A stretch of 22,667 bases of DNA. Origin: a virus. Taxonomy: Duplodnaviria; Heunggongvirae; Uroviricota; Caudoviricetes. A program made the position numbers and the translations under genes. Of this stretch, positions 8,491-22,667 are shown one piece after another. The notes under the pieces are model-generated. The model was not told the origin of the DNA. It worked only from the letters and a program-made list of their open reading frames with translations, and ran no database searches. The stretch lies in the IMG/VR virus record IMGVR_UViG_2778261501_000002, positions 1 to 22,667 of that record. One strand, written 5' to 3'. The stretch's first letter is position 1. Each line of letters begins with the position of its first letter.

Positions 8491-9530
8491 AGGCTGAAGC
8501 ATGGCGGGTCAGCAAACTTGGTGAAATACCTGATATAACGTTCGAGGAAGCGTGTGTCAGGTGGCTTGAAGAGAAAGCACATAAAAAATCGCTGGACGAT
8601 GACAAAAGCCGGATCGGATTCTGGCTTCAACATTTCGCAGGAATGCAACTAAGAGACATTACTGAATCAAAAATTTATTCAGCAATGCAGAAAATGACGA
8701 ACCGGCGTCATGAGGAAAACTGGAAACTCAGGGCAGAAGCATGCAGAAAAAAAGGGAAACCTGTTCCAGAATACACGCCAAAACCAGCGTCCGTTGCAAC
8801 GAAGGCTACGCATCTTTCATTTATAAAGGCCCTACTAAGAGCCGCAGAGCGTGAATGGAAAATGCTGGATAAGGCACCAATTATTAAAGTGCCTCAACCA
8901 AAGAATAAACGGATCCGCTGGCTGGAGCCCCATGAAGCACAAAGGCTGATTGATGAATGTCCGGAGCCATTAAAGTCTGTTGTTGAATTTGCACTGGCAA
9001 CAGGCTTAAGACGCTCGAACATCATCAACCTTGAATGGCAACAAATAGATATGCAGCGCCGGGTGGCATGGATAAACCCGGAAGAGAGTAAATCAAACCG
9101 CGCAATTGGCGTTGCGCTGAATGATACTGCATGTCGCGTATTGAAAAAACAAATCGGGAATCATCACCGTTGGGTATTTGTGTACAAGGAAAGCTGTACC
9201 AAACCAGACGGAACGAAAGCGCCAACAGTAAGGAAGATGCGGTATGACGCAAACACAGCCTGGAAAGCGGCGCTGAGACGGGCTGGTATTGATGATTTCA
9301 GATTTCACGACTTGAGACACACCTGGGCAAGTTGGCTGGTTCAAGCCGGAGTCCCGTTGTCAGTGTTACAGGAAATGGGAGGCTGGGAGTCTATCGAAAT
9401 GGTTCGTCGATATGCTCACCTTGCACCTAATCACCTTACCGAACACGCACGGCAAATAGACTCGATCCTGAACCCATCGGTCCCAAATTTGTCCCAGTCA
9501 AAAAATAAGGAAGGTACTAATGATGTGTAA
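8367..9530 (+). CDS. int: Tyrosine integrase (lambdoid P22/DLP12-type)
   Basis: 387-aa ORF, GAGGA SD 6 nt upstream of ATG 8367; conserved HDLRHTW and RRYAHL catalytic motifs; strong resemblance to enterobacterial prophage integrases as recalled. Confidence 0.92.
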
Positions 9531-9702
9531 CTTATTGATTTTAATGGTGCCGATAATAGGAGTGTAACACGCGATAAATCTTGTGTTCGGGTCTTCTTCT
9601 ACGACCTTCGCAACTACCTGATTTAACGATTTTTACGCACACTGATAATCTGGCATTCATCATGCACATGATAAACGCCCCTAAACTTTAACGGGGTGGA
9701 AA

Positions 9703-10926
9703 ATGAAATACAAGCCGGATCAATACATCATATCTGATAGTTACGGAGTTTATTACGTCAGGATTTCAATTCCTGTATGGCTTCGTAATGCATTTGGTGG
9801 AAGAAAAACTCTCGTCCGTAGTCTGAACACTTCCGATCTTCGTGTGGCTCGTAGGAAGCGTGATGTTATAGCCGACGAATTTCACCACATCAGGCAAATT
9901 GCAGAGCCGCCAAAACCGGACAGCTTGCAGGACACGATCAGCTTTTTAAAGAGCGTGGCTAAGTACGCGAAAGCTGCCCCGAAAGCATCAGCTCCGATTA
10001 TCTACCAATGCCCCTCTCTGAATAAGATGTTAGAGATTTACCTCACGCATAACGCTGATCGCCTGAAAATGGGAACATTAAGCAAGACCAGAAAAGCCGT
10101 TGAACTGTTCCTGAATTACCTGCGAAAGAAGGATGTTGAACTAAACGATATCAACCGTACCACCGTTACAGGCTGGCTTGATCATCTCCGAGAGACAAAG
10201 GCAGTCCAGACAGTGGCTAACTACCTATCAGCAATGGCAAACATTCTCGATCTTGCCTCTTCCCGATACCAGGACGCCCCACCGCTGGAAACTAACGTGT
10301 TCAGGGGGCATAAACTCAACACAGCGCAGAGCCGCCAGAGTTACGAGGCATTCACGGACGAAGAAATTACGAAGCTCATTAGCACGTTTAACAAGTTAGG
10401 AGAGGACGAATTAAGGGATGTGAGCGCCATCGCCGCTTATAGCGGAATGCGCATCAATGAAATAGCCAGTTTGAAATCTGACAATATCCGTGAAGTTGAG
10501 GGGGTGTTATGTTTCGAGGTGACGGAGGGTAAGACACGCAATGCGGCGCGGTTGGTTCCACTTCATAGTGCGATTAGAAAAATGGTTCTGGAACGCTGCC
10601 AGAAGCCGCACAACGGCTTTTTATTCTACCGTGCAAGTGTGACCAAGAGACAGGACGGCAAGCGCTCCTCATGGCACGTAAACCGCTTTGGACGGCTTAA
10701 ACGCGATATTCTCCCAGGGCAGGAAAACAAGGTGTTTCACTCGTACCGCCATGCAGTGATCAGTAAGCTAAACGCCGCCGGAGTGGATGAATCTCGTATT
10801 GCCTTGCTCGCGGGTCACTCATTTGGAGAAACTGAGTCTTTCAAGACGTATTCGAAGAGTGTTCCTGAGCGTATTATGAAGGAGTTAGCGGGGTATATTG
10901 AATTAATAAATTACAACGTCCAGTAA
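9703..10926 (+). CDS. Tyrosine recombinase/integrase (second, distinct integrase)
   Basis: 407-aa ORF; catalytic motifs MRINEIASL (box I Arg), HSYRH, GHSF, and Tyr in FKTYSK; unrelated in sequence to the upstream integrase. Confidence 0.85.
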   Translation: MKYKPDQYIISDSYGVYYVRISIPVWLRNAFGGRKTLVRSLNTSDLRVARRKRDVIADEFHHIRQIAEPPKPDSLQDTISFLKSVAKYAKAAPKASAPIIYQCPSLNKMLEIYLTHNADRLKMGTLSKTRKAVELFLNYLRKKDVELNDINRTTVTGWLDHLRETKAVQTVANYLSAMANILDLASSRYQDAPPLETNVFRGHKLNTAQSRQSYEAFTDEEITKLISTFNKLGEDELRDVSAIAAYSGMRINEIASLKSDNIREVEGVLCFEVTEGKTRNAARLVPLHSAIRKMVLERCQKPHNGFLFYRASVTKRQDGKRSSWHVNRFGRLKRDILPGQENKVFHSYRHAVISKLNAAGVDESRIALLAGHSFGETESFKTYSKSVPERIMKELAGYIELINYNVQ

Positions 10927-10931
10927 TTAAG

Positions 10932-10950
10932 GGGGGATTATACATCCCCC
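10932..10950. terminator. Hairpin between convergent genes (bidirectional terminator candidate)
   Basis: GGGGGAT-tatac-ATCCCCC, 7-bp stem, between the integrase stop (10926) and the 92-aa gene stop (10957); T-rich flank on the minus-strand side. Confidence 0.45.
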
Positions 10951-10956
10951 GATAAC

Positions 10957-11235
10957 TCATTTATTCCATTCGTTTTGAATTTGATTCTCAACTGCTGGCA
11001 AAAGGTTATACCAGGAAGCAGAGTTATTCTTAGCATCAACAACAATCAACTTATCATCGCTATCCATCGCTGCCCGAACTTTTCTGGCAGCCTCTTCAAC
11101 CGAATAATTCGAATTTACGTACCAGTTCGACTCGGTAACTTTTGCCCAGTTGCCCAAGGCCTTGATAGCATCATGCACAGCAGCATAATCTTTGGTTTTG
11201 ATCAAGTCATAGGTTACAAACAAGTTGTTAGCCAT
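10957..11235 (-). CDS. Hypothetical protein (92 aa)
   Basis: GGAGAG SD 6 nt upstream of ATG 11233-11235; alternating strand/helix pattern suggests a small alpha/beta fold; no family recognised. Confidence 0.5.
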   Translation of the reverse strand: MANNLFVTYDLIKTKDYAAVHDAIKALGNWAKVTESNWYVNSNYSVEEAARKVRAAMDSDDKLIVVDAKNNSASWYNLLPAVENQIQNEWNK

Positions 11236-11293
11236 TTAATTCTCTCCAGACATTCAAATGAATAAGCACCGCTATGGGCACTTTGAGATATTT

Positions 11294-11422
11294 TTATTTC
11301 TTAGCTTTCTTGGTAGGGATTTTGATAGTTTCAGTTATCGTAGTATCAGGATGTCGTTTAGCTTCAATGGGCTTAACAAACTGACCAGTTATCGCAGAAC
11401 GAACTACTGTTTTCTTAGCCAT
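11294..11422 (-). CDS. Hypothetical small basic protein (42 aa)
   Basis: GAGGTG SD 5 nt upstream of ATG 11420-11422; lysine-rich; not in the supplied track (under 60 aa). Confidence 0.35.
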   Translation of the reverse strand: MAKKTVVRSAITGQFVKPIEAKRHPDTTITETIKIPTKKAKK

Positions 11423-11573
11423 AAAAACACCTCATCTTGGAGATAAAGAGTGAACTGCTTACCCTTTTAAGGGTAAGGGACAAACGAAGCGGCGTCAAAG
11501 AAAAACACCACATATACACATCCTTTACAAACCGAGCGCAATATGTGGTATTCCCATGTGATTTACATCACAA

Positions 11574-13424
11574 TCATCCCCCTGTGGATGACTGACCGCT
11601 CAAGGCTGATAGCGTAAGGCTACGAGTGAATGAATCCGCACTCGCTTTTGCAGACCAGTCGATATAGTCAGACAATCGAGAAACATCACTTTGCAGAGTC
11701 AATCCCACTTGTGGATTCACTTGTAGGTTGAATATCGGGTTCAACGTGTACGCTGGCGCGTTGCTGCTGTTGAGCGACATTGCCGAAGCACGGAGATTTT
11801 CCCCTGAAAGGCTGTATTGATTAGTCGCTGTCCCTGCTTGCTGATTACCAACGCCCAACCAATCCATGATAGCCGGAGCCACTGAACGGGTATCAAACCC
11901 CGTTTTATCCTGAATCCAATCGGCCGTAGCATTCGCAGAGCCACCCACAGCACCATCATAAAGATTTTGAACAGCAGGTTTCTTAGTATCGCTAAACCAT
12001 TCAGGGTGTTGTTGGCGGAGAGTACTGTTAAGATCAGACACTACGCTGGAGATTTCTCCAACAAAGCCCGTCACCTGTTTAGCCAGGTCGCCTAATCCCT
12101 CTCCGAGCATACCAGCAGATTCTGTTATCACTTTGGTGTTCTTCACCAGGTCGTCACCACCATCAGCAAAGCCTTTCATAAAGCCTGTAAACATGCTGTT
12201 ATCAACGCCATTCATGAGATTACCCATCGCTACACTCAGATCACCATATGCAAGAGTTTGCTTGATCTGCTCCTCGTTAAGAGTTTGACCACTATCGACA
12301 AGCTGTTTCAGCGTCTTGTTATATTCTGCACCGTTGTTCATGAACATATCGGTGTAGTGCATCAGGTCATCACCTAAACTCTCTATAAGCGTACCAATCT
12401 GAGCCTGTGACATACCACGGCGTTGCCCTTCATTGGTAACTGCTTGAAGTAGATCAGCAGGACGATCCTGGAAGGATTTAATCTGTTCTTTGCCCCATCC
12501 AAACTTATTCATAATAGAAGTGATACCACCATCGCCGCCTTTCCATTCGCCATTTTTAAACTGGCTATCGTTCAGGGTCATAGCGATACGTTCACGTACA
12601 TCTTTGAAATTGTCCGTCACTTTATCGACATTGGCGCTATCAACTCCGTGTTGCTGCCCCCATGCCACCATCGTTTTAACTACGTTAGGATTAGTCTTAA
12701 CAAGTTCCGATTTTCTAACCAAGTCAAGATTTTCATTCCCTTTGTCAACAATTCGCTGCCCCACTCCGAGGGAGCCAGCCGTTAACGCAAGGCTTCCTAA
12801 TACCCCACCACCGACGATAGGAGCATTCCCGCCCTTCTGAGCCTTTAGCTTAGTGGCTGCTGCGGCATACTGGGTACGCTGTGCCTGTGTCACTTTCGCT
12901 TGTTGTGCGGCTTCTCTGCGTAACAGGGTTACACGCTCGCGTATAAGCGCATTCATACGTTGAGAGCTAATATTCCCCTTCGCAAACTCTTCGCTTTGCT
13001 GATGAATATAACGTAACGCTTCATACTGAGATTTAGGATCAAGCCCGTATTTACCTTTAATTCCTGACACTTGTAGCCCTGCATGGCGAAGTTTAAGCTC
13101 GGCTGTCTCTTGGCGCTTCTGTAGCTGCTGCTTCGCTTTCAGATTGGCCTTTTCATCCCTGGCTTTCTGCTTCTCCGCCGCACGTTGGGCTTTCATTTCC
13201 TTCGTATCACGAGGCTTATCATTAAAACGTGCATCATCGGCTTGTTGACGGGCTTTCTGTCTGCGCTGCTTCAGATCCTGGAAGCGAATCTTGGGATCGG
13301 CTATTTTCTGGAAGTGCTTTTGAAGGTTATCCGCTGCGGCCTTAGCCTCTGCAATACTCCCTTTGTCAACGGTGAAAGTTACGGTGTTGACGATCTTACT
13401 TGTATTAATCTCAAGCATCGCCAC
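11574..13424 (-). CDS. Phage tail tape-measure-like protein
   Basis: 616-aa ORF with a long charged coiled-coil N-terminal region and Gly-rich hydrophobic segments (GGGVLGSLALTAGSLGVGQ). Start is ambiguous: GTG 13424 or ATG 13418. Confidence 0.45.
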   Translation of the reverse strand: MAMLEINTSKIVNTVTFTVDKGSIAEAKAAADNLQKHFQKIADPKIRFQDLKQRRQKARQQADDARFNDKPRDTKEMKAQRAAEKQKARDEKANLKAKQQLQKRQETAELKLRHAGLQVSGIKGKYGLDPKSQYEALRYIHQQSEEFAKGNISSQRMNALIRERVTLLRREAAQQAKVTQAQRTQYAAAATKLKAQKGGNAPIVGGGVLGSLALTAGSLGVGQRIVDKGNENLDLVRKSELVKTNPNVVKTMVAWGQQHGVDSANVDKVTDNFKDVRERIAMTLNDSQFKNGEWKGGDGGITSIMNKFGWGKEQIKSFQDRPADLLQAVTNEGQRRGMSQAQIGTLIESLGDDLMHYTDMFMNNGAEYNKTLKQLVDSGQTLNEEQIKQTLAYGDLSVAMGNLMNGVDNSMFTGFMKGFADGGDDLVKNTKVITESAGMLGEGLGDLAKQVTGFVGEISSVVSDLNSTLRQQHPEWFSDTKKPAVQNLYDGAVGGSANATADWIQDKTGFDTRSVAPAIMDWLGVGNQQAGTATNQYSLSGENLRASAMSLNSSNAPAYTLNPIFNLQVNPQVGLTLQSDVSRLSDYIDWSAKASADSFTRSLTLSALSGQSSTGG

Positions 13425-13608
13425 CGCCTTTTTTACTCACCAGATAATTAAGTGCATCTGATACACTACGCCCACGATGTAATAACTGACGTAGATGACC
13501 GTGATCTATTTCAAGCACACGACACACTCCCGCCAGATTTAATAACTCTTCTGCTGTTTCAGCATTTACGGCGAGGTGAAGCCCCGCGCTTTTTACAATC
13601 ACTTGCAT
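13411..13608 (-). CDS. Hypothetical protein (65 aa)
   Basis: GAGGAA SD 6 nt upstream of ATG 13606-13608; stop overlaps the start of the tape-measure-like gene. Confidence 0.4.
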   Translation of the reverse strand: MQVIVKSAGLHLAVNAETAEELLNLAGVCRVLEIDHGHLRQLLHRGRSVSDALNYLVSKKGGGDA

Positions 13609-13630
13609 TTATCTTTCCTCATTCTGGAAA

Positions 13631-13665
13631 TAAAAAAGGGCGGGAACACTGGGGAGATGTTCCCA
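13631..13665 (-). terminator. Rho-independent terminator downstream of the capsid gene
   Basis: On the minus strand: GGGAACA stem with 10-nt loop, then GCCC and TTTTTTATTT. Confidence 0.5.
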
Positions 13666-13727
13666 ACGTTCACACGCCCTATTCAATAGCCTGATTATTT
13701 CCAGCGGGTCAGGCTCCCGCTTGCTCA

Positions 13728-14759
13728 TTAAGCAGTGATGGTGATCTTCACCTGCATACCTAACGCATGGTTCACTGGTAATGCGCTGTTTTCGTGCATA
13801 ACGTGGTAAGCATCGCCGCGCTCGCTCAGGTAGCCCCAAGAGTAGTATTCAGCAGGTGCAGCATCGATCAGCGCAAAGTTACCAGAGGCAGCGCCGTAGA
13901 TGTTCTGATAAGCATTTGTGCCTTTACTGAACACCGGAACCGCCACCATGTCAGCATCATCTGGCATCTGTGCAAGGATCAGCGGATCTGTCACTTTAAC
14001 AATGTCGATAGGCGCACCAGGTAGGCTAAACGTACTAACACCAGGGAGAAGCTCGTGACGCTGGTAGAATAGGTTACGGTCGTCATATGGCGCTACATAC
14101 TGGAACGCCTTAGACATACTGTCAGAGAAGCGAATCTGGCTAAATGCAGCAGGTTTAGCGAATACGATCACTCGTTCAATCTGTCCAGCCAATCCACCTG
14201 CGGCAGCCTGAACTTTGTCTAAGATCGCATCAAAATCCTGTGCCGCTGTCGCTGTGCTCACGCTGGCTGTCATTGGCACCACACCGAACAGTTCAGCATA
14301 AGAGATCAGTAGGTCATCAGTTGCAGGCGTATAAACTTCACCTTTGAACAGAGCACGGGCCAGGTAAGACTCACGGGTACGCAGATAAGCAATCTTATGT
14401 TTGCCAGTGTATTCGGTGTACAGGTCGGTAACGGTTTGCTCGTAGTCCGTTCCCTGCACTCTGCGGCCTTGTACGTCTACAGGTTTAAACTCATCTTCCC
14501 TTGCAAACCAAGGAATCTCGATAAGGTATTCTTTGCCATTCTGACGCGCGGTAGTGTCGTGGTTTGATGAATAACGGCTCTGCGGGGTGTTAAACAGGCT
14601 GTAGTTATCATCCAGAAGCTGTGTCACCACCACTTTCGGATTCTGAACACCTACCCCGTCGAATAGGTCGAGGGCATTCATAAGATAGTTACGTTCCGGC
14701 AGAGCCTGGAAGATTGGCGCTAAATCGACCATCTCACGCCCAATTGCGATTTTACTCAT
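13728..14759 (-). CDS. Phage major capsid protein, lambda gpE-like
   Basis: 343-aa ORF, AAGGAAG SD; size and C-terminal pattern (WGYLSERGDAYHVMHENSALP) resemble the lambda gpE family as recalled; preceded by a roughly 110-120-aa gene as in the lambda D-E arrangement. Confidence 0.5.
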   Translation of the reverse strand: MSKIAIGREMVDLAPIFQALPERNYLMNALDLFDGVGVQNPKVVVTQLLDDNYSLFNTPQSRYSSNHDTTARQNGKEYLIEIPWFAREDEFKPVDVQGRRVQGTDYEQTVTDLYTEYTGKHKIAYLRTRESYLARALFKGEVYTPATDDLLISYAELFGVVPMTASVSTATAAQDFDAILDKVQAAAGGLAGQIERVIVFAKPAAFSQIRFSDSMSKAFQYVAPYDDRNLFYQRHELLPGVSTFSLPGAPIDIVKVTDPLILAQMPDDADMVAVPVFSKGTNAYQNIYGAASGNFALIDAAPAEYYSWGYLSERGDAYHVMHENSALPVNHALGMQVKITITA

Positions 14760-14775
14760 TATTTATCTTCCTTGA

Positions 14776-15135
14776 TTAAGAGGTGAAGAATGGACGGCAT
14801 ACGAACCCTTTGGATTCGAGCGTGGTGATAGCTGCGGCGTGATTAGCTGCGTGCAGGTTGTCGGCTTTCAGTGCTACGAAGCTACCAACATTAGGCGCAC
14901 GTAGGACATTCACGGTTTTACCGTCGCCAGCACTCACGAAATCACTTACCACCACAAAGGCATCATCGCCGGAGGTGTATAGAGCGCCATCAGCGCCGAT
15001 AACATCGCCGCATTCAATATCTGCTGGCAGGTCGAAAACACGGCCTTCTACGACTGCAAAAGAATCAGTGGCGTAGCTCAATACGTCAGTGAAACTCTTA
15101 CGAATTGGGAAAAGTTCGGTTAGGTCTACAATCAT
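14776..15135 (-). CDS. Putative head decoration-like protein (119 aa)
   Basis: Position and size relative to the capsid gene; ATGA overlap with the upstream 71-aa gene. Assigned from gene order only. Confidence 0.3.
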   Translation of the reverse strand: MIVDLTELFPIRKSFTDVLSYATDSFAVVEGRVFDLPADIECGDVIGADGALYTSGDDAFVVVSDFVSAGDGKTVNVLRAPNVGSFVALKADNLHAANHAAAITTLESKGFVCRPFFTS

Positions 15136-15347
15136 TGTTGTTTGATTTCCTTGGATTTGATTGCGATCCGTTCCTGCATACTAAGTTGAGGTGTGTCCTC
15201 AGAAGGGAAATACTGGTCTACAGCTTTTTCTATTTCTTCAACGGTACATCCTGCCATTTCAGCCACTTTAGCTATTAACTCAGGATTAACTTGAATCACT
15301 TCGGATTTGTATTTTAGGATTCGGTCGCGATTGTTTATTAAGAACAT
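15132..15347 (-). CDS. Hypothetical protein (71 aa), first gene of the head-gene operon
   Basis: AAGGAA SD 7 nt upstream of ATG 15345-15347; translationally coupled to the next gene. Confidence 0.4.
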   Translation of the reverse strand: MFLINNRDRILKYKSEVIQVNPELIAKVAEMAGCTVEEIEKAVDQYFPSEDTPQLSMQERIAIKSKEIKQQ

Positions 15348-15415
15348 TGTGTTGTTCCTTCGCGTTATAACTGCGTTTATCCTTCCATTGATAACGGAAG
15401 TGTTACATGCAGATT

Positions 15416-15440
15416 GTTAAAAAGGGGCGATTAAGCCCCT
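15416..15440 (-). terminator. Rho-independent terminator candidate
   Basis: On the minus strand: AGGGGC-uuaauc-GCCCCU followed by UUUUAAC. Confidence 0.4.
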
Positions 15441-15732
15441 GGAGAATATGCCCTTGTTAGAAAGCATTCTGTTAAAATCATTTTCGTTTCGGAGGATTAT
15501 GATGTTAAAGAATGGCTTCTTGAAAAAATGAAGGGTGCAACTGTTACGAATAACAGAAGTAGGATCGCCCGTCATTGCTCCCACTTCAAAACAGAAGCCC
15601 TTCTGTCATGGCGAGAAGTGGGAATGGAATCTCAATATCACCACTGGAATAGTAATAAGAGATTGCCAGCCTGAACGTAACTACCGCTGACGGCGTTTAT
15701 TCAGTCTGACTACATTCATCCTAACGGAATGA

Positions 15733-15966
15733 ATGAGCAAAGAGCGAATGCCCTTTCTGAAAAAGTCGGAGATGCGCGGTGATTGCGATGCAATACCAAC
15801 ACAACGAGATATTACATCCCGCGCATTCCTTCGGAACAAACAAGACAAAGAACCAACACTTTCAGAAATAGCATTCAGAGGGAGAGAATGCCGCTATGGG
15901 AACGGCATTCTCAAGGAGTGCGTATTGACATACGAGGGTGAAGTGATTCGAATACTTACCCTATAA
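15733..15966 (+). CDS. Hypothetical ORF (77 aa), weakly supported
   Basis: Open frame with only a weak SD; convergent with the gene at 16014-16352. Confidence 0.2.
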   Translation: MSKERMPFLKKSEMRGDCDAIPTQRDITSRAFLRNKQDKEPTLSEIAFRGRECRYGNGILKECVLTYEGEVIRILTL

Positions 15967-16013
15967 CTCATTATGACACATATAGCACATAATGTCAAGA
16001 CATTTAGTAACTT

Positions 16014-16352
16014 TTATGTTATGGCGCATTCTTCCGCGATCTGGATGGAAAGCTCTCCGAGTTCAACGGTGATGTATTGCAGAGAGCAAGCAAGCTCCTC
16101 AAGGTCATTAGCTACACGCCACGCTTCTTCTGGTGTGATCGAACTGCCGTCACGCTGCACCAAACGAGCTACAGACGTTTGCAGATGTTCAAGGGCAGTG
16201 ATTGCCTGTTCAGTGTATTGCACCGCTTCCAGAAGCGCGGAGGGCGTTCTCTCACGCCACGCTGCATTAACAAGCTGTAAGGTTGGTAAATGCCAGTTGT
16301 CGTGGAAAGAGTTAATTAGGGTGTTCACTGTGTCCATAGTTTTATTATTCAT
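16014..16352 (-). CDS. Hypothetical protein (~112 aa)
   Basis: AGGAAAA SD upstream of ATG 16350-16352, which overlaps the stop of the upstream 127-aa gene; the track's longer 144-aa start at 16448 is less likely. Confidence 0.4.
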   Translation of the reverse strand: MNNKTMDTVNTLINSFHDNWHLPTLQLVNAAWRERTPSALLEAVQYTEQAITALEHLQTSVARLVQRDGSSITPEEAWRVANDLEELACSLQYITVELGELSIQIAEECAIT

Positions 16353-16728
16353 TGTTTTCCTTGTCGTCAAAGAGAATATCAAACTCTTGTGTGTGCTGGG
16401 ATAGCCCCCAGGTTTGACAATACCCAATATAATCGGCGTAATGTTCAAATCCTGCTATTTGCCATTTCTTGAGATGGCTACTATCTATAATATATTCGCG
16501 TCTGCGTCGTGGTTTGTAATAAACGTTATCCGTTGACGATAGAACATCCTGCAATAGTTCAAACTCTAATCCATTTGGTACTACTGCGGGATATTCTTTA
16601 ATAGTTGTCACCATCTCACCAGGAATAGACTCTCGTGCGAGGTCTTGTAGAGAAGAGGTGTATTTACGTTTGCTGATGCGTGTGGCTTTTTCGATTCTAA
16701 CAAGGTTACTTCGTTCTTTTCGTCCCAT
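16345..16728 (-). CDS. Hypothetical protein (127 aa)
   Basis: GAGGAA SD upstream of ATG 16726-16728; basic N-terminus. Confidence 0.45.
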   Translation of the reverse strand: MGRKERSNLVRIEKATRISKRKYTSSLQDLARESIPGEMVTTIKEYPAVVPNGLEFELLQDVLSSTDNVYYKPRRRREYIIDSSHLKKWQIAGFEHYADYIGYCQTWGLSQHTQEFDILFDDKENNE

Positions 16729-16832
16729 TCATTCCTCGTAGAGGGGAAACTCCTTGTCTGGTTATAACGTAAACGCCATAGAATATGGTGAACCACCATA
16801 AAGCAGTAATCATAAAAGTTTCCCGATTGTTG

Positions 16833-17294
16833 TTATTTAGTCGTAAGTGTAATGTCGCATCCTTTACCGCGACCAGGTTTGATTAACGTAGTAGTTAGAT
16901 AATCATTGCGGCGAAGCTTGCGAATCGCACTGGATACAGTTGCCACACTTATCCCCAACACTATCGCTATTGACTCCTGTTTCACATTTGTTAATGATGG
17001 CAGTGATTCGAGGTGCATTAATACCAGACGTTCCGAAGGAGACAGATTCTTATCGTGAAGATGTGGGGATGTCATTTTACATTCTATCTCTTTCGGTGGC
17101 TTCATCGCTGCATTGAATAGCGTAACAAGAGCATTAGCGTAACTTGATTCACCTCGCTCAGCGTAAACATCTACAAGTTCTTGCGCTTGTTCGAATGCAA
17201 CACCTCTTTCAACTTCTGGATTTAATAAACTGGCAAGATGGATGATGTTAAGATCACGTTCGTTGTATTGTTTGGGTATAACCGTTTTCAGCAT
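16833..17294 (-). CDS. HTH-domain protein (153 aa), putative regulator or replication-associated
   Basis: C-terminal winged-helix-like segment (VKQESIAIVLGISVATVSSAIRKLRRNDYL); start overlaps the upstream gene's stop. Confidence 0.5.
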   Translation of the reverse strand: MLKTVIPKQYNERDLNIIHLASLLNPEVERGVAFEQAQELVDVYAERGESSYANALVTLFNAAMKPPKEIECKMTSPHLHDKNLSPSERLVLMHLESLPSLTNVKQESIAIVLGISVATVSSAIRKLRRNDYLTTTLIKPGRGKGCDITLTTK

Positions 17295-18028
17295 AAATGT
17301 TCTATTTCCTCGTAGATTGGTTTAAGTTTTGGATTCTTCTCTGTGTCCAGGTATCCGTTAATAAGTAGCCATCTGATTTTCGGATGTTGTGAAACTGGTA
17401 GATTCTTTTCAGGATTCTCCCATTCATCCCGATAACCCTCAAGAAAGTTTAAATTAACTGGCTCTATCTTAATATCTTTAGCTGGAATGGAGGCGGGTTT
17501 CTTCGTAGGCATTTTCTTTGGCTTCTCCGGCTTCGGATCTGCTTTGGCCTCTTCTGGCACTGACTGCTGTTTTTCTTCCTCTGGCGCTACGTCTTCTTTA
17601 GCTTTGCCAAACACGGGATGTTTCAGACAATCTACCCATTCCGGCGCGGAATCACGTTCCATCGCATTACGATCACGTTCAAAGGTGAAGTTTTGCGGCG
17701 TGAGTGGCGTTATAGTCCATTGGTTAGAGCGCTTTGGCTTATTACTGGCGATCAGTCCGATTTTCTTCAACTTTGCAACAATACGTGTTGCCGTAGCCGA
17801 GCTGACACCAATACTTGCACCAAGTTGATCAATGTCATCGTAATAAGTACCGCCCAACTCTATCGCAAAGCGATAATAACGATGGCGCATTCTGACGTAA
17901 AACTGCTTATCAGCAGGAGACAGGGACTCTGTTACGCCTGTTTTAAGATTGGTGATCCTGGTGCATTCGTTAAATGCGTCTTCGGTGTTGGTGAAACTAA
18001 AAGCCTTACTGTTTATAATGTCAGTCAT
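17288..18028 (-). CDS. HTH-domain protein (246 aa) with K/E/P-rich linker, putative regulator or replication initiator-like
   Basis: HTH segment (IDQLGASIGVSSATATRIVAKLKKIGLI), low-complexity charged linker, then a C-terminal domain. Confidence 0.5.
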   Translation of the reverse strand: MTDIINSKAFSFTNTEDAFNECTRITNLKTGVTESLSPADKQFYVRMRHRYYRFAIELGGTYYDDIDQLGASIGVSSATATRIVAKLKKIGLIASNKPKRSNQWTITPLTPQNFTFERDRNAMERDSAPEWVDCLKHPVFGKAKEDVAPEEEKQQSVPEEAKADPKPEKPKKMPTKKPASIPAKDIKIEPVNLNFLEGYRDEWENPEKNLPVSQHPKIRWLLINGYLDTEKNPKLKPIYEEIEHLC

Positions 18029-18042
18029 GTTAGGGTGTATCC

Positions 18043-18219
18043 TTATTTGGTAGAACGTTCTCCGTTCTTAATTGATGTGGAAAGTGTGGTTGCAGCGTCA
18101 ATTAACATCTCCTGCACTGTTACGCCTCTCGCTCGCGCCTCTTTGAACAAAGTACTAAACACTTCATCCGGCAGTTTTACGAATGTTCCGGCTGGTTTCT
18201 TCTTCTGGATTTCGCTCAT
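18043..18219 (-). CDS. Small ribbon-helix-helix-like DNA-binding protein (58 aa)
   Basis: AGGAG SD 7 nt upstream of ATG 18217-18219; predicted strand then helices (GTFVKLPDEVFSTLFKEARARGVTVQEMLIDAA); not in the supplied track (under 60 aa). Confidence 0.45.
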   Translation of the reverse strand: MSEIQKKKPAGTFVKLPDEVFSTLFKEARARGVTVQEMLIDAATTLSTSIKNGERSTK

Positions 18220-18237
18220 TTGGTTTCTCCTTCTGGT

Positions 18238-18486
18238 TTATTCGTTGGTGGTGGTTTCAGCCTGTTCAGCTTTCCATTGATCGTAAAGTTCGATTCCTTT
18301 ACGCAATCTTTCAGCGTGTTCGAAATATCCTTGCCGTTGTGCGGCTGCTCGCTGGCTGTTTATTGCATTTCGCGTCTGGCTTCCGGCCTTTAAAGCCTCG
18401 AAGACAAGTTCTGGATTAAAATACTTAATTTTGGTTCTCCTTGCGTTAGAAACACAGAAACACCATCCAGGGAGAACGTTAATCAC
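18238..18486 (-). CDS. Hypothetical protein, start uncertain (GTG at 18486, or in-frame ATT at 18429 behind a strong SD)
   Basis: The only strong SD (AAGGAG, minus strand at 18442-18437) sits 7 nt upstream of an in-frame ATT codon; there is no ATG/GTG/TTG within reach of it. Confidence 0.3.
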   Translation of the reverse strand: MINVLPGWCFCVSNARRTKIKYFNPELVFEALKAGSQTRNAINSQRAAAQRQGYFEHAERLRKGIELYDQWKAEQAETTTNE

Positions 18487-19164
18487 GTTGCCTGATAGTG
18501 CGGTGTAAGTTGGATTGTTTGCGTTAGGCTGGATGCCTGAGATGAGGACGGGATGAATGCTTTCATTACCCTACATCATTTACTTTAACATGAAATGATT
18601 TAAATGTCAACACTTATTTAAATCCCTTTCAAATTATAGCGCATTTCCACGTTGTGATCAACTCATTCATGTCATCATAAAACGCGGTCTATCGCTTTCT
18701 AACAGGTTTGAAAGCCTGAGAGTTGCAATCCCCTCCCTATCCTCTCAAATTCGCTCTCAGCGCGTCTGGGGCGTTCCGTTTGCGTTACCGCCGCCCTCTG
18801 GCACTTACTCCCGAAACCAATAGCACAACTACTGAGGGATAACGTTAGTTATCAGGATAGTAGGTGATGGTATTGGATTGAGGCTGGATGAACTGGAGCC
18901 ATCAGCGACCAGTGAATCCTTAGCCGTGGGCTAACTTTGCATGGATGAATGCGGAGCATGGAAGACAGGCAGAAGTTATGCTGAAAGACATTGCGCACAC
19001 GGCGCATAGCTTCTGTGCCTCGTTTCACGAGGGCGAAGCCCTGGCACAATCACAGACAGATGCGCTACGCTGCGTCGTGAGCGGCTGACCGAGTAGCCCC
19101 CAAAGGCGAATCAGGTCACTTGCCAGGCGATACGCGCCAGCAAAGCGAATCTTTAACAAGATCT

Positions 19165-19291
19165 TCTAAAAGCTCTCTTTTAGAGATCGCTTTTAGAATC
19201 TCTTTGTATAGAACATCAATTTGATGTGTAGTTTGCCGATCCATACATCAATTTGATGCGTATCCCATGCATCTATACATCATTTTGATGT
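19165..19291. promoter_or_regulatory. Operator/iteron-like repeat cluster
   Basis: Perfect inverted repeat TCTAAAAG-ctct-CTTTTAGA (19165-19184); three 13-bp palindromic repeats CATCA(A/T)-T-TTGATG at 19214-19226, 19246-19258 and 19278-19290 with exact 32-bp phasing. Confidence 0.55.
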
Positions 19292-20050
19292 ATAACGCCC
19301 CCAACTAACTCTGATTCATCCATGCAACAACACTAAGAGTAACGAGAGGTTATTCCTATCAAAACAACACGATAATCATAGCTAAGCCTATCTTAAATGA
19401 CAGGTAAAGATTGCCGTTGTTACATGGGTAAAGTTGCCATAGTCAGCAAGATAGTAACCATCACTCACTTTGCGTAAAGCCTTGCGCCATGCGGCTCACA
19501 GCGATCATTGTCCACAATGAGGAGTTTCATGACAGGTGCAATGTGCTGAACGAGTTTTCTAAAATGAAACGATGTTTCTTTTTCATGCCAAAATCCACCA
19601 ATTGATTAGCATTCTAATCATTTCATTACACACTCAGTTTCAAGTGCATAAACTCCGCATAATTTGTGCATACAGGCAGGTTAGCCCCGCCCTCGCCTAA
19701 CAACCTTACATTTATCAGATTTAAATCAATGAGATAGACAATAACCACACACAAGCATTGGTAGTGTGATGTTCCGCTGTTGCCGCTGTTCTTCGTGCAG
19801 AGTTGAGGATTTGGCAATGTTCAAACACATGTTTATAAATGCCAACATCATGATTTTGTTCAAGATATTTAGAGGAGAAGAAATTTTCGATCTGGAGGCG
19901 GCCCTGGAGGTCGTTAAGCACTGGACGCAATCGCGCCATTTACCACACACAAGACAGTTCGATTTTTGATCATTTATATTGCAACTTACTGAAATTGATC
20001 ATATTGTTTGTTTCGTTGAGTTTAGATGTGTGTCTTTATGGGAGGGTAAA

Positions 20051-20611
20051 TTGAACAGAGCAGTAGTGTTAGACGAACAGCAAGCCAAAGCGATCAGGGA
20101 GTGGCTAAACGCTCATAACAAGAGCCTGATAGCTGACGTTACGTTAATGATGCAAGCCGCTGTACTGCGTGTGGGGGATGCCGTAGCGTTACGCTTCGAC
20201 GAAGTGATCAACGGTGAGATTGACATAGAAGAACAGAAGACAGGGAAGCGTAAAGCCCTCACTCTCCCTGCTCCAGTGGTGCAGATGATTGCTCGTCGCC
20301 GTGCTGAGTATCCGCATGATGTGCATGTGTTCAGAAGCCAGCGTAACCGATCAATGAACAAGCAAGCGCCTGTACGACGCGAAGAAGTGAGCAAGCAGAT
20401 CGCAGAGGCCGCTAAAGCTATCGGTATTCATGGCACTGTATCAGCTCACAGCTTCCGCAAAGCTGGCGGGAATGCCATCTACAAGCGTTCAGCAAACAAC
20501 ATCGCTTTAGCTATGACCGTGCTTAATCACAGCAACATCACTGACACCAGGCGCTATCTGGATTTAGACAAGCAAGCCGTTAGCCGTGTGATCAATGAGA
20601 TGGACTTATAA
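20051..20611 (+). CDS. Small tyrosine recombinase, catalytic domain only (~186 aa)
   Basis: GGAGGG SD 4 nt upstream of in-frame TTG 20051 (the track start at 19979 is also TTG); motifs LRVGDAVALRF (box I Arg), HSFRKAGG and TRRY (catalytic Tyr); no N-terminal arm/core-binding domain. Confidence 0.65.
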   Translation: MNRAVVLDEQQAKAIREWLNAHNKSLIADVTLMMQAAVLRVGDAVALRFDEVINGEIDIEEQKTGKRKALTLPAPVVQMIARRRAEYPHDVHVFRSQRNRSMNKQAPVRREEVSKQIAEAAKAIGIHGTVSAHSFRKAGGNAIYKRSANNIALAMTVLNHSNITDTRRYLDLDKQAVSRVINEMDL

Positions 20612-20621
20612 GGAGATACGC

Positions 20622-20819
20622 ATGAAACGCTTGCTTGTGCTGACGCTGACAGTAATGCCAGTCCTGGCGAATGCCGGACAGATAACCCTGATTCTCAGTG
20701 ACGAACAGGAGACAGACAACGCGAAGATTTGCGTTTATTCCAACGCCAACTTTACGGAGACAGTGACGCTCAGGCCGTCGCAGCAATGCCGCTACACAAT
20801 GACCTTTGAAGAGGAGTAA
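20622..20819 (+). CDS. Small secreted/periplasmic protein (65 aa) with signal peptide
   Basis: AGGAG SD 6 nt upstream of ATG 20622; N-terminal signal-like MKRLLVLTLTVMPVLANA; two Cys in the mature part. Confidence 0.5.
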   Translation: MKRLLVLTLTVMPVLANAGQITLILSDEQETDNAKICVYSNANFTETVTLRPSQQCRYTMTFEEE

Positions 20820-20877
20820 CAATTGAAGAAGGAAGACAAGCAGATAACCAGCGTGGTCTGGTGCGGTGTATAAGTAA

Positions 20878-21357
20878 TCACTGCTTGGAATCACGTAGGA
20901 TCAGAGACAATATCCACCACCAGCGACGACGCAGCCAACTAACATCACTGAACAGCTTCCCATCAGATGTAGTAACATACACCCCTCCGCGATGATGCAC
21001 CTTATTATGGTGAGCCTTATTGATGAATGGTACTTCTAAGATCATTTCATCACGGGCTTTTAATCGGCGTGGCAACATGGGGCTGATCATGTATTCATCA
21101 CAATGTTCGTTAGAACAATCGCTAAGGCGTCCGCTGGCGGTTACTATGCCCGCCGAACTTATCGTCACATCATGGGCGCTTTTGTTGGAAACATAAATTC
21201 TGTCTTCATACTGATCGCAACCTAAGAAAAGGCGTAGATCTGTTCTGGATTTTAATAGCTGGAAAATGGATAGTGCAAACCCAGCCCATGCGGCAAGCAT
21301 GGTCAGATTATCAACATTAAGCAACCAATCTATCAAAGTTCCATCCCTTGAGAGCAA
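20878..21357 (-). CDS. Hypothetical membrane protein, start uncertain
   Basis: One predicted TM helix (LTMLAAWAGFALSIFQLL); Trp/Arg-rich C-terminus; candidate starts are TTG 21357 or ATG 21300. Confidence 0.35.
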   Translation of the reverse strand: MLSRDGTLIDWLLNVDNLTMLAAWAGFALSIFQLLKSRTDLRLFLGCDQYEDRIYVSNKSAHDVTISSAGIVTASGRLSDCSNEHCDEYMISPMLPRRLKARDEMILEVPFINKAHHNKVHHRGGVYVTTSDGKLFSDVSWLRRRWWWILSLILRDSKQ

Positions 21358-21560
21358 AGATAATTAGCAATTCCTTGATGCTGTAAGTCAGTCAATTGGA
21401 AGTAGGAATCGAGTACGATTATGACTTGCGTGGCATTATCAGCATGAACAGAACCAGGGGTATCAGGAGGAAGCGAACCATCAAGGATGGCAGTAAAGTA
21501 ACCCGATGAGATAGAGACTTTCAGGAAGCAATTGGGTAAAAATTCGTAACGTTCACTCAT
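21333..21560 (-). CDS. Hypothetical protein (75 aa)
   Basis: GAGGTGG SD upstream of ATG 21558-21560 (MSERYEF...); the track's longer 104-aa start at 21647 is less likely. Confidence 0.4.
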   Translation of the reverse strand: MSERYEFLPNCFLKVSISSGYFTAILDGSLPPDTPGSVHADNATQVIIVLDSYFQLTDLQHQGIANYLCSQGMEL

Positions 21561-21723
21561 AACCACCTCATTTTCAGATTGTTTCTGCAAAGCGTACATT
21601 ACGAATTTTATTCTTTTACCGCATTTCAAACCAAATGACAATTCCATTGAATCAGTTGAGGATTTTAACCCTCACCGAAGATAACATAACCTCAAAATGT
21701 CTATCGCTTCATTGAGGAAATGT

Positions 21724-22497
21724 ATGTCTACTGAAAATTTTGTCACCTTCTGGTTAGCCAGAGCCGATCTTCCATACTTTCTTGAACCCCATGAATTTTA
21801 CGTTTCTGAGGCAAGGCGGCGGCTTCTCTCTCAGTTTGGTGATTTAGAACAAGAAGCAGAGAAGAGAGAACAACAGTTTTTGGAGACTACTGCTGAGTAT
21901 TTTGATCAAGATAACGATGACCCAATGGCGGCCTACGAGCAAGCCTATCATGAGGGAATTTATTATGTACGGTCGCTTCTGGAGATGCAAAATACCGTAT
22001 TGTTGGCGTTGACAGCAGGTATGTATCATCAGTTTGATAAAAAACTAAGAGAACATACTATCAAAGAGCTAAGTAATTGGTGTGAAAGAGAATTGATTAC
22101 CCCCATGATCTGGAATTTAACTTTCCATCAGCTAATTGATTTGCTCGAATGGATTGGCCTCACAATCAATGGAACCGAATACGGAGAAAGGATAAAAGCC
22201 TGTAACTTGGTGGTAAACGTATACAAGCATGGAGACGGCCCTGCACATCAAACACTATCAGTTGATCATCCTGAGTATTACCCAAACCCCACCGATGTTA
22301 GAGGCACGCAGATTGTCCCTAACCATGACGATTTACATGTCTCAGAAGATCAATTTGTAGATTTTGCTAACGCAATAACTGCTTTCTGGAACGCGGTTCC
22401 AGAAAATTGTTACTACTCAGATCTTAGAGAAGAACCCAAATGGTTGGATAGAGTTGTGACAAGATTCGAAAAAAAGCATAGGGGCAATAGGGGCTGA
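21724..22497 (+). CDS. Hypothetical protein (257 aa), AT-rich cargo gene
   Basis: GAGGAAA SD 4 nt upstream of ATG 21724 (ATG 21697 is an alternative); no family recognised. Confidence 0.5.
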   Translation: MSTENFVTFWLARADLPYFLEPHEFYVSEARRRLLSQFGDLEQEAEKREQQFLETTAEYFDQDNDDPMAAYEQAYHEGIYYVRSLLEMQNTVLLALTAGMYHQFDKKLREHTIKELSNWCERELITPMIWNLTFHQLIDLLEWIGLTINGTEYGERIKACNLVVNVYKHGDGPAHQTLSVDHPEYYPNPTDVRGTQIVPNHDDLHVSEDQFVDFANAITAFWNAVPENCYYSDLREEPKWLDRVVTRFEKKHRGNRG

Positions 22498-22505
22498 TTA
22501 GCCCC
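22490..22505. terminator. GC-rich hairpin between convergent genes
   Basis: GGGGCT-gatt-AGCCCC overlapping the stop of the 257-aa gene; no clear T-run on either strand. Confidence 0.3.
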
Positions 22506-22508
22506 ATC

Positions 22509-22667
22509 TCAAAACATCAAGTTTGCAGCTCGCGCCAACTTGATTTCCTCTCGCTCTTCCTGCTTCTTAGCAAGCCAGGCTTTCCCCTCTGGTGTTGCCA
22601 GGAATTTACGGGCGTGAATCTTACGGTTGTTGCGCTTCGTGGCTGCTTTTTGGTTAGCTTTTGACAT
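22509..22667 (-). CDS. Small basic protein ORF reaching the window edge (52 aa if the ATG at 22665-22667 is the true start)
   Basis: Open frame from the window edge to TGA at 22509-22511; lysine/arginine-rich; possibly 5'-truncated by the window. Confidence 0.3.
   Translation of the reverse strand: MSKANQKAATKRNNRKIHARKFLATPEGKAWLAKKQEEREEIKLARAANLMF

Follow-up and report, generated by a model that had tools for sequence, protein, structure and literature searches.

The DNA under study is a stretch of 22,667 nucleotides (the window) that makes up positions 1 to 22,667 of the virus record IMGVR_UViG_2778261501_000002 (Caudoviricetes) and is 100% identical to the chromosome of Escherichia coli AR_0128 and to six other genomes. 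Our analysis centers on a gap of ~1.56 kb, between window positions 18486 and 20051, for which RefSeq annotates no coding sequence and which lies in an element integrated at thrW. Comparison of this gap with related loci suggests a model in which the region is probably an iteron-type replication origin with an adjoining 13-mer unwinding block, acting as the control hub of a thrW-integrated, capsid-encoding, satellite-like element. The features of the gap and of its borders on which this model is built are, from left to right:

17288–18028, minus strand: 246-aa winged-helix initiator-like protein (proposed Rep; DUF6945)
18582–18610, minus strand: putative sigma-70-type promoter of the leftward operon (82-aa, 58-aa, Rep and HTH_36 genes)
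18795–18925, plus strand: domain A of a proposed structured RNA, with CCUCUGGCAC invariant at its 5' side, a GAUAAC-GUUA-GUUAUC hairpin within a long interrupted helix, and a kink-turn-like module
18926–18989, plus strand: variable middle of the RNA, with hairpins that differ in length and sequence among relatives and a conserved GAAGUUA loop
18990–19152, plus strand: domain C of the RNA, in which a UGCGC/GCGCA hairpin and a three-way junction occur together with a long-range helix around GGCUGACC...GGUCA..GCC
19160–19206: near-invariant 47-bp block, GATCTTCTAAAAGCTCTCTTTTAGAGATCGCTTTTAGAATCTCTTTG, proposed DNA-unwinding element
19213–19230: iteron 1, ACATCAATTTGATGTGTA
19245–19262: iteron 2, ACATCAATTTGATGCGTA
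19277–19294: iteron 3, ACATCATTTTGATGTATA
20051–20611: tyrosine recombinase of 186 aa at the right border of the gap, with cargo genes beyond it

Of 5426 complete E. coli genomes, 22 contained a 1.65-kb query taken around the gap, in each case on the chromosome. For comparison we gathered 53 related loci from genomes, viral contigs and metagenomes, many of them near-identical to one another, which represent seven genera. A sequence-only reading of the window had noted that the region lacks convincing open reading frames (ORFs), in agreement with the absence of annotated genes between 18486 and 20051: the ORFs of 63–74 aa that do occur within the gap showed no protein-level conservation in an 80%-identical relative, and a hidden or decayed gene was rejected on this ground.

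The most conspicuous feature of the gap is a cluster of phased dyads. The palindrome CATCAATTTGATG occurs exactly at 19214–19226 and at 19246–19258, and successive repeats start 32 and 32 bp apart. The sequence-only reading had described three copies at exact 32-bp distances, and this spacing was borne out; the third copy (19278–19290, CATCATTTTGATG) carries one mismatch, yet still forms a perfect 7/3/7 dyad (TACATCA-TTT-TGATGTA). The full repeat unit comprises 18 nt, ACATCAwTTTGATGyrTA. Allowing up to two mismatches, we counted 10 strand-matches to the motif in the window against 0.95 expected, a number that none of 100 dinucleotide-preserving shuffles reached. A search for further copies, as had been proposed, found the palindrome confined to the cluster within 41.6 kb of the identical genome, and in all loci that share this repeat core (class A, see below) it was found only within the iteron cluster. 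One near-match, CATCACTTTGATG (one mismatch, minus strand), stands isolated at 6020–6032 in a neighboring degraded element and is probably due to chance. Most relatives carry a fourth copy 42–44 bp beyond iteron 3; in the window lineage this copy is absent along with ~90 bp, a deletion relative to the related loci L002 and L004.

Next to the repeats lies the 47-bp block. It contains the inverted repeat that the sequence-only reading had placed before the palindromes and which is indeed perfect, TCTAAAAG-CTCT-CTTTTAGA at 19165–19184 (8/4/8), and can be lengthened into a 12-bp stem that contains one bulge (GATCTTCTAAAAG/CTTTTAGAGATC). The block can equally be described as three tandem units of ~13 bp that start near 19171, 19184 and 19197, with GATC at 19160 and 19185 and a third GATC in the first iteron spacer; as RNA, it would read as a 12-bp hairpin followed by GCUUUUAG. 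It is 96–100% identical in E. coli, Klebsiella, Phytobacter, Enterobacter, Buttiauxella and Scandinavium, compared with 70–85% for its flanks, and is thereby conserved above any gene of the element across these six genera. Because the divergent version of the Kluyvera locus L008 keeps the 13-mer periodicity (three ATCTCTTTCTwww 13-mers) but not the inverted repeat, the block fits a DNA-unwinding element better than a hairpin. Tandem 13-mer unwinding elements are typical of oriC and of plasmid origins. The GC content of the block is 34%, and it sits within an 80-bp zone of low stability.

The GATC sites of the block have a possible counterpart among the genes of some relatives. A dam-type methyltransferase (PF05869) with a C-terminal helix-turn-helix (HTH) converges on the iterons in L009 (7826–8494) and L007 (2449–3120), and in Klebsiella and Scandinavium relatives the dam methylase gene fills the right half of the gap. 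A remnant of it, its last 18 codons, persists in L002 (12997–13050), L005 and L008, and nothing of it is retained in the window. The methylase and the GATC sites of the 13-mer block together hint at methylation-controlled initiation.

The proposed Rep matches the PHROG family phrog_8102, annotated as a replication initiation protein, at 5e-10, and weakly the 'O-like' family phrog_391 (4e-5); a match to Pfam RepA_N was not found. The protein is modular, being composed of an N-terminal winged helix whose recognition helix and wing vary by class, a conserved PEWVDCLKHPVFG segment, a low-complexity linker rich in Pro, Glu and Lys, and an exchangeable C-terminal domain, of which at least two unrelated types occur among the loci. 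In an AlphaFold2 model of the N-domain, the predicted local distance difference test (pLDDT) score is 70–94 over residues 11–140. This domain resembles an uncharacterized Vibrio cholerae domain, 4ro3 (Foldseek 1e-4; profile 2.7e-6), and has weak Foldseek matches to the RepA_N initiators 4pta, 4pt7 and 5kbj (E 0.02–0.1) and to the DnaD N-domain 2v79 (0.12). The gene downstream of Rep encodes an HTH_36 protein that shows no loader signature. Both the C-domain type of Rep and this downstream gene vary among relatives (compare window 16833–18028, where the downstream gene encodes a 153-aa HTH_36 protein, with L002 10555–11629, where it encodes 93 aa), and the two may covary, as lambda O and P do.

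The rep operon is preceded by a sequence that we regard as its promoter, with a −35 TTGACA at 18610–18605, a 17-nt spacer and a −10 TAAAGT at 18587–18582 (10 of 12 matches in a consensus scan); the −35 and spacer sequence GAAATGATTTnAAwGTCAA was kept in 19 of the 28 representatives checked. A half-iteron beside it, TACATCATTT (18572–18581), was considered as an autoregulatory site and dropped as a general feature, given that its hexamer varies independently of iteron class. The leader of the operon, which runs from the promoter to the 82-aa ORF, can form a hairpin at 18526–18538 (AGGC-UGGAU-GCCU; AGGCA-GAA-UGCCU in most relatives), which may be a regulatory stem-loop of the mRNA.

The relation between this protein and the repeats became apparent from loci in which both differ. 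In a relative integrated at glyU, the repeats keep their position, spacing and flanks and the 47-bp block is identical, while the repeat core changes from ACATCAATTTGATGT to TACGGGTTTTTCCCGTA. Overall, five core classes occupy the same place in the 53 loci, each with 3–5 copies at 32/32–33/42–44 bp:

class A: CATCAwTTTGATG
class A2: CCTCAwTTTGAGG
class B: CGGGTTTTTCCCG
class C: GTGCCAnnnTGACAC
class D: the Kluyvera class

Phased repeats are kept in these homologous elements, and it is the core class that varies. Recognition helix SSATATRIVAKL goes with CATCAwTTTGATG, KYDAASDALKKL with CGGGTTTTTCCCG, and SKSTtLRcL with GTGCCAnnnTGACAC, and the class of the core equals that of the recognition helix in all 35 loci where both could be read, many of these being near-identical. 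The type of the C-terminal domain is independent of core class, as illustrated by the window and L004, which share repeats and helix and differ in their C-domains. RNA variants located between the repeats and the gene are likewise shuffled among core classes (variant v1 with A, B, C and D; variant v2 with A, B and C), which argues that the match between core and helix has been kept by function and not just by clonal descent.

A further arrangement is found in L056 (~8561–10700), where the RNA is kept and the initiator, the block and the repeats are replaced together. The replacement protein is a different HTH_36 protein that matches five PHROG initiator families, one DnaD-like loader family and one HTH DNA-binding family; the block has given way to an unrelated 56-nt AT-rich stretch, and the repeats are four copies of TATCAnnnnTGATAGGGGTA. 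Two unrelated cassettes follow the same grammar of an AT-rich stretch, phased dyads and a winged-helix protein, and point to an origin with its initiator. L056 additionally holds relic repeats of class D and class A2, and L009, L014 and L019 hold relic class C repeats beside the functional class A repeats; we take these relics as fossils of successive specificity swaps.

Taken together, these results favor the iteron origin that the sequence-only reading had listed among its possibilities, as the cores switch class with the recognition helix of the initiator, adjoin the 13-mer block and are swapped as part of a cassette in L056. We propose that the 246-aa winged-helix protein would bind, probably as dimers, to the three phased dyads at 19213–19294, which as iterons three helical turns apart would present themselves on one face of the DNA. 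The resulting nucleoprotein complex would open the adjoining AT-rich block of three ~13-bp GATC-carrying repeats (19160–19206), and host or helper replication proteins would then be loaded at the opened block. The conserved promoter at 18582–18610 would drive the rep operon leftward, and a structured RNA of ~360 nt (18795–19152, probably plus strand) would be transcribed toward the origin. From the comparisons described here we infer protein binding, unwinding of the block and origin activity, as well as the strand and ends of the RNA and any function it may have.

With regard to the features expected of iteron origins, at least three phased repeats are present (three at 32/32 bp in the window and 3–5 in relatives), and the class comparison and the cassette swap in L056 both indicate a cognate initiator encoded on the same element, which would physically contact them. 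DnaA boxes or an IHF site are common, although not universal, in such origins; a conserved TTATCCACA-like DnaA box was not found near the repeats. Nor does the region follow the layout of lambda O, in which the repeats lie inside the initiator gene and a P-like partner is present; the repeats are located 1.1–1.2 kb upstream, in noncoding DNA.

Several observations weigh against an origin. Besides the missing DnaA box, whose sole near-match, TTGTCCACA at 19508 with one mismatch, was rejected as being unconserved and falling in the center of a dyad that varies in relatives, the element encodes no recognizable helicase, primase or loader. The Pfam match of the proposed Rep to DUF6945 (2.5e-6, 27.9 bits) stays 0.1 below the cut-off of 28. 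The block is not the least stable DNA of the region, and the window copy has three repeats compared with the usual four. The class match, many loci being near-identical, rests on few independent events, perhaps 6–10. Finally, the core swaps, the class match and the L056 cassette prove a cognate protein–site pair and not an origin as such, because repressor–operator cassettes swap too, as they do as modules in lambdoid phages.

The main rival is accordingly the other proposal of the sequence-only reading, that of repressor operators; in this case the winged-helix protein would act on the repeats as a repressor or immunity factor and bind the phased dyads cooperatively, as at lambda OR/OL. Such an array would control rightward or leftward transcription, for instance of the RNA or of a lytic program, and its dyad symmetry is what dimeric repressors require. 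NCBI labels homologues of the protein as ArsR/MarR regulators, Foldseek scores to MarR-type repressors equal those to RepA_N, and more generally the fold E-values to MarR, DtxR and SmtB repressors resemble those to initiators. Specificity classes and cassette swaps are also typical of phage immunity regions, as known from textbooks, and a further conserved dyad in the right half of the gap shows that regulatory sites do occur in the region. However, the distance from the repeats is ~730 bp to where the rep operon starts and ~760 bp to the recombinase gene, thus ~700 bp to the flanking gene on either side, and the repeats overlap no conserved promoter: a scan of 19160–19300 found none, none is conserved across core classes, and the nearest conserved one is that at 18582–18610. 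Candidate promoters of the form TTGATG-N17-TACATC between successive repeats had been considered and were set aside as a class A peculiarity and hence no feature of the family. Moreover, two unrelated modules both pair their repeats with an abutting AT-rich stretch of ~50 nt, for which an operator has no need, both the protein and its L056 replacement match several PHROG initiator families, and the half-repeat beside the rep promoter shows no covariation with the class of the repeats. Operators therefore fit less well, and we consider them unlikely.

Between the rep promoter and the block, ~360 nt form the best-conserved noncoding stretch after the block itself, and the variation within them is compensatory. 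We built two covariance models, for domains A and C, and realigned 34 loci. For domain A, 34 pairs were modeled, with 90.6% of cells paired and 19 pairs double-changed; its covariation was 0.221, compared with 0.088 in shuffled alignments, none of 500 of which reached the observed value, and controls in which pairing partners were slid left 23–45% of cells paired. Similar results were obtained for domain C (36 pairs, 89.8% of cells paired, 18 pairs double-changed; covariation 0.259 versus 0.099 when shuffled, 0 of 500 reaching it; slid-partner controls 29–40% paired), and in the slid controls for both domains covariation did not exceed 0.082. In total, 37 of the 70 modeled pairs show compensatory changes. 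RNAalifold applied to a plain MAFFT alignment found 19 compensatory pairs, and compensatory pairs are also present in the variable middle, at alignment columns 188–212 and 221–233.

The individual helices illustrate this behavior. One hairpin occurs as CUGG/CCAG, CCGU/ACGG and CUUGC/GUAAG among relatives, a second as UCG/CGA, CCG/CGG, CUGAC/GUCAG and ACCUG/CAGGU, and a third as GGGC-GAA-GCCC, UGGC-AAA-GCCA and AAAC-GAA-GUUU, while the long-range helix is found as UGACC/GGUCA, CAGCC/GGCUG and UGUCC/GGACA. The three-way junction of domain C (~19020–19052) reads GUGCC / UCG-UUUCA-CGA / GGGC-GAA-GCCC / GGCAC. The kink-turn-like module (18889–18925) combines a GGCU/AGCC C-stem with a bulge of 4 nt and with tandem G-A/A-G pairs beside a hairpin; the tandem GA is invariant in 34 of 34 loci, whereas the enclosed hairpin varies in sequence and length. 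A nested duplicate of this module is present in L034, L026 and L052.

As to its strand, domain A has 46 G-U compared with 4 A-C cells and loops that are purine-rich on the plus strand only. Domain C gives no clear strand signal, most of its A-C cells coming from hairpins misaligned by the model. Folding z-scores are −3.0 for the plus and −2.1 for the minus strand, and the RNA is likely to lie on the plus strand, reading toward the origin. No consistent sigma-70 −35/−10 was found for it among the loci, just a conserved TTAAAA/TTTAAA-like hexamer ~40–55 nt upstream of CCUCUGGCAC. Its 3' end may be the terminator-like 12-bp hairpin with GCUUUUAG within the block, or else a weak hairpin with a T-run at 19566–19583. 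A search against Rfam 15 (4227 models) gave none at gathering score in the window, with E ≤ 5 yielding a spurious miRNA model on the inverted repeat alone, and the divergent Klebsiella homologue L009 gave no match at E ≤ 1.

The partial direct repeats that the sequence-only reading saw near 18511 and 18870 bear on this RNA as well. They are real (TTGGATTG at 18510–18517 and 18873–18880; (A)GGCTGGATG at 18526–18535 and 18881–18890), but they are confined to window-like lineages and represent no feature of the family. A role as a site at which the RNA would pair in trans with the leader of the rep mRNA (18 complementary nt) was discarded on the same ground, and such pairing is probably nonfunctional.

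It could be argued that 18795–19152 is protein-binding DNA or a decayed gene instead of an RNA, and that the covariation is an artefact of kinship and of alignments fitted to the model. Indeed, the alignments were fitted to the proposed structures, the sequences are related and the tool's own caveat on its shuffle control applies, and a promoter search that defined none and the unclear strand signal of domain C point the same way. On the other hand, pairing at 90–91% falls to 23–45% when partners are slid by 1–3 columns, a control that retains relatedness; more than half of the pairs are double-changed, several helices exist in three or four Watson-Crick versions, and whole hairpins have been swapped in place for different ones. 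The sequence-based MAFFT alignment already recovers compensatory pairs, and no ORF is conserved. We thus regard an artefact as rather improbable, and on the strength of these sequence patterns it is very likely that the region encodes a real, uncatalogued structured RNA.

The position and orientation of this RNA next to the origin are constant in 34 of 34 loci, including L056 with its foreign replicon cassette, which suggests a role in replication control or priming, although any such role is conjecture. More specifically, and as a tentative suggestion that we hold to be possible but doubtful, the RNA would represent a new class of large noncoding RNA specific to these elements, working in cis with the initiator at the origin as a pre-primer, R-loop former or copy-number sensor.

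Two further explanations concern the block and the repeats. According to the first, which is very unlikely, the 47-bp block, with or without the repeats, would be a pac/cos packaging signal or a recombination site used by a helper terminase or by the 186-aa recombinase. This would account for conservation of the block beyond that of the genes of the element across six genera; the presence of a capsid gene together with the lack of a recognized terminase or portal means that packaging must be borrowed, and a small recombinase gene borders the region. The block is, however, identical where the small recombinase is 42% identical or absent within 3–4 kb, the 4-bp spacer is too short for a tyrosine-recombinase core site by textbook standards, exchange of the block with the initiator in L056 ties it to replication, and no helper is known, phage records showing no similarity to capsid or Rep bar one remote capsid match. 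According to the second, which is barely plausible, the palindromes would act as hairpins in read-through RNA or as initiation signals of single-stranded DNA, the core swaps being compensatory: both arms do change together between classes, the neighboring structured RNA points at the repeats, and the C/A arm mismatch of class C on the plus strand becomes a G-U wobble on the minus strand, but core class tracks the protein recognition helix in every locus read, as hairpin function would not predict, stems are 5–7 bp with centers of 1–3 nt in class A, and both the asymmetric flanks (TA..GTATA), which are conserved, and the exact helical phasing suit an array of bound protein.

The iteron origin proposed here belongs to an element of ~13.7 kb that spans window positions 9544–22667 and runs on to ~23266, past the end of the window. 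A 20-nt direct repeat that copies the 3' end of the tRNA-Thr gene thrW bounds it on either side (9544–9563 and just past the right end of the window). The suggestion of an att site between 18487 and 19978 has consequently been abandoned: the tRNA-end repeats sit at the element ends, and none occurs inside this interval. A syntenic, ~80%-identical relative is integrated at glyU in other E. coli strains, and the relative L002 (2939–17005) ends in 24-nt glyU repeats. The gene order of the element is:

9703–10926: integrase, first gene of the element
next: tape-measure-like protein of 616 aa (phrog_16051, 2e-98)
next: lambda-E-type major capsid protein (PF03864)
remainder: several small ORFs, the HTH_36 protein, the 246-aa winged-helix protein, the 58-aa and 82-aa proteins, the 1.56-kb gap, the recombinase and cargo

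Pfam and PHROG searches recognized no terminase, portal, helicase, primase or loader among its proteins, and when 50,697 phage records were searched by tblastn with the capsid and Rep proteins, one remote capsid match and no Rep match resulted. We found no literature on DUF6945 or on a matching satellite family. The element looks like an apparently undescribed, satellite-type, capsid-encoding one, and its family is possibly an undescribed phage-satellite family. Related integrative elements of 13–15 kb were seen in E. coli, Klebsiella, Enterobacter, Citrobacter, Phytobacter, Kluyvera and Buttiauxella; they carry the lambda-E-like capsid and tape-measure-like genes, in L053 also a Dit-like gene, and lack terminase, portal, protease and lysis genes. 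A check for circular contigs found no terminal overlaps pointing to episomes, and the Logan contig L053 (13.7 kb) has tRNA-end repeats at its ends, as would be expected of an integrated or an episomal state alike. To the left, window positions 1–9563 hold a second, degraded prophage-like element with tail sheath and tube genes, a truncated terminase, an XRE repressor and an integrase of its own (8367–9530), which stands in tandem at thrW, separated from the capsid-encoding element by just the 20-nt att repeat.

The right half of the gap (19300–20050) is noncoding and contains two islands that are conserved throughout the family, 19454–19625 and 19806–19873. The following features were noted there:

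19505–19520: 16-bp dyad TCATTGT-CC-ACAATGA, arms conserved and center CC, GG, GA or CG among ~20 relatives
19566–19583, plus strand: weak hairpin GAAAC-GAU-GUUUC with T5 after it, scoring too low to pass the terminator scan
~19606–19619: second dyad, ATTAGCATTCTAAT, replaced by TTGAGAATAATTCTCAA in other lineages

From their sequence, the two dyads are probably operators of some regulator, for which the conserved 58-aa protein is a candidate; an assignment of this protein by eye to the ribbon-helix-helix type received no Pfam or PHROG support and was dropped. At the site of the weak hairpin, relatives have different hairpins with a T-run, and we tentatively consider it as possibly an intrinsic terminator for rightward transcription. 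Three CACACACA / CCACACACAAG-like motifs, conserved in L002, surround the start of the recombinase gene (19745–19755 and 19943–19953, direct; 20027–20036, inverted). The recombinase itself comprises the catalytic domain only, with no N-terminal core-binding domain, and the CCACACACAAG-like motifs may be where it binds, or may form a resolution site. Lastly, GGCGAGGGCGGGGC (19684–19697, minus strand), present in 9 of the 53 loci, presumably resembles the G+C-rich cohesive ends of P2/P4 and lambda, and we left it open as a cos-like candidate of which no use is made here.

These findings would provide a concrete and testable replicon, composed of a protein, its repeats and an unwinding block, for widespread and apparently undescribed small capsid-encoding elements, and with it an entry point to their helper phage and life cycle. 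At least five repeat classes, each paired with a helix class on a conserved scaffold, constitute a natural specificity-swap series for a winged-helix domain, which is useful for the study of how DNA-binding specificity evolves. If the RNA does work with the initiator at the origin, replication of these satellites would depend on a swappable protein–iteron pair plus a conserved RNA, and a new origin-linked large structured RNA, with covariation support comparable to that of curated families, would be of interest to RNA biologists whatever its role.

Among known systems, the closest experimentally proven analogue is the RepA/ori module of the Vibrio PLE satellites, which carry three semi-palindromic iterons of ~30 bp in a noncoding region and a RepA_N domain whose variation matches that of the ori, and for which it was shown experimentally that only cognate RepA_N–ori pairs replicate (PMC8263062). 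In contrast, that work (PMC8263062) describes for PLE neither an invariant block of 13-mers nor a structured RNA beside the origin, as found here. In both cases a satellite-type integrative element has its origin close to the gene for the initiator, within a large stretch of noncoding DNA, about three semi-palindromic repeats recur with a period of ~30 bp, and it is the N-terminal DNA-binding domain of the initiator whose variation follows that of the repeats, the other parts of the protein recombining independently; the N-domain studied here also weakly resembles RepA_N initiators in fold. The two differ in that we detect no RepA_N sequence membership, the best relative being 4ro3 / DUF6945, in host clade and gene content, with lambda-E-like capsid and tape-measure-like genes present here, and in the number of specificity classes, at least five compared with two. 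The example of PLE and the phage nuclease Odn suggests by analogy that these classes may be the footprint of an origin-targeting arms race.

The lambda origin, in which dyad-symmetric iterons are bound by initiator dimers beside an AT-rich segment, and the lambda O protein, with its N-terminal DNA-binding domain, linker and C-terminal partner-binding domain and with recombination in the linker, show a comparable layout of both DNA and protein, in keeping with the weak 'O-like' PHROG match. Lambda ori is, however, inside the O gene, whereas the repeats described here are upstream of the initiator gene and outside ORFs, with a 32-bp period and no recognized P-like loader. Iteron plasmids (pSC101, RK2 oriV, P1 oriR) and oriC share the abutment of phased initiator sites and T-rich, GATC-containing 13-mers. 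P1 oriR and oriC are methylation-dependent, and some relatives of the present element carry a dam methylase of their own beside the origin. Unlike those of iteron plasmids, the present repeats are palindromic and not simple direct ones and have a period of 32 bp compared with ~22 bp, a conserved DnaA box is lacking and the initiator family is unrelated.

For the RNA, the transcript-primed theta replicons of ColE1 (RNA II) and pAMbeta1 likewise have a structured transcript of several hundred nucleotides that is oriented toward the origin and ends beside it, a likeness in orientation that rests here on G-U/A-C counts and loop composition. In contrast to ColE1 RNA II, there is no sequence or Rfam relationship, no antisense partner like RNA I was identified, and an initiator and iterons are present; priming at the origin as in ColE1 is pure conjecture by analogy. 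With ROOL, GOLLD, HEARO, raiA and other large structured bacterial noncoding RNAs of Rfam that are linked to mobile elements, the RNA shares a length of more than 300 nt, multiple helices, strong covariation, a kink-turn-like motif and residence on a phage-related element, and it differs from them in matching no Rfam model and in being, as sampled, confined to an Enterobacteriaceae element family in which it is always adjacent to the origin. Overall, the proposed origin is a variation on the known iteron-origin type, and the RNA that flanks it is the most novel item of the locus.

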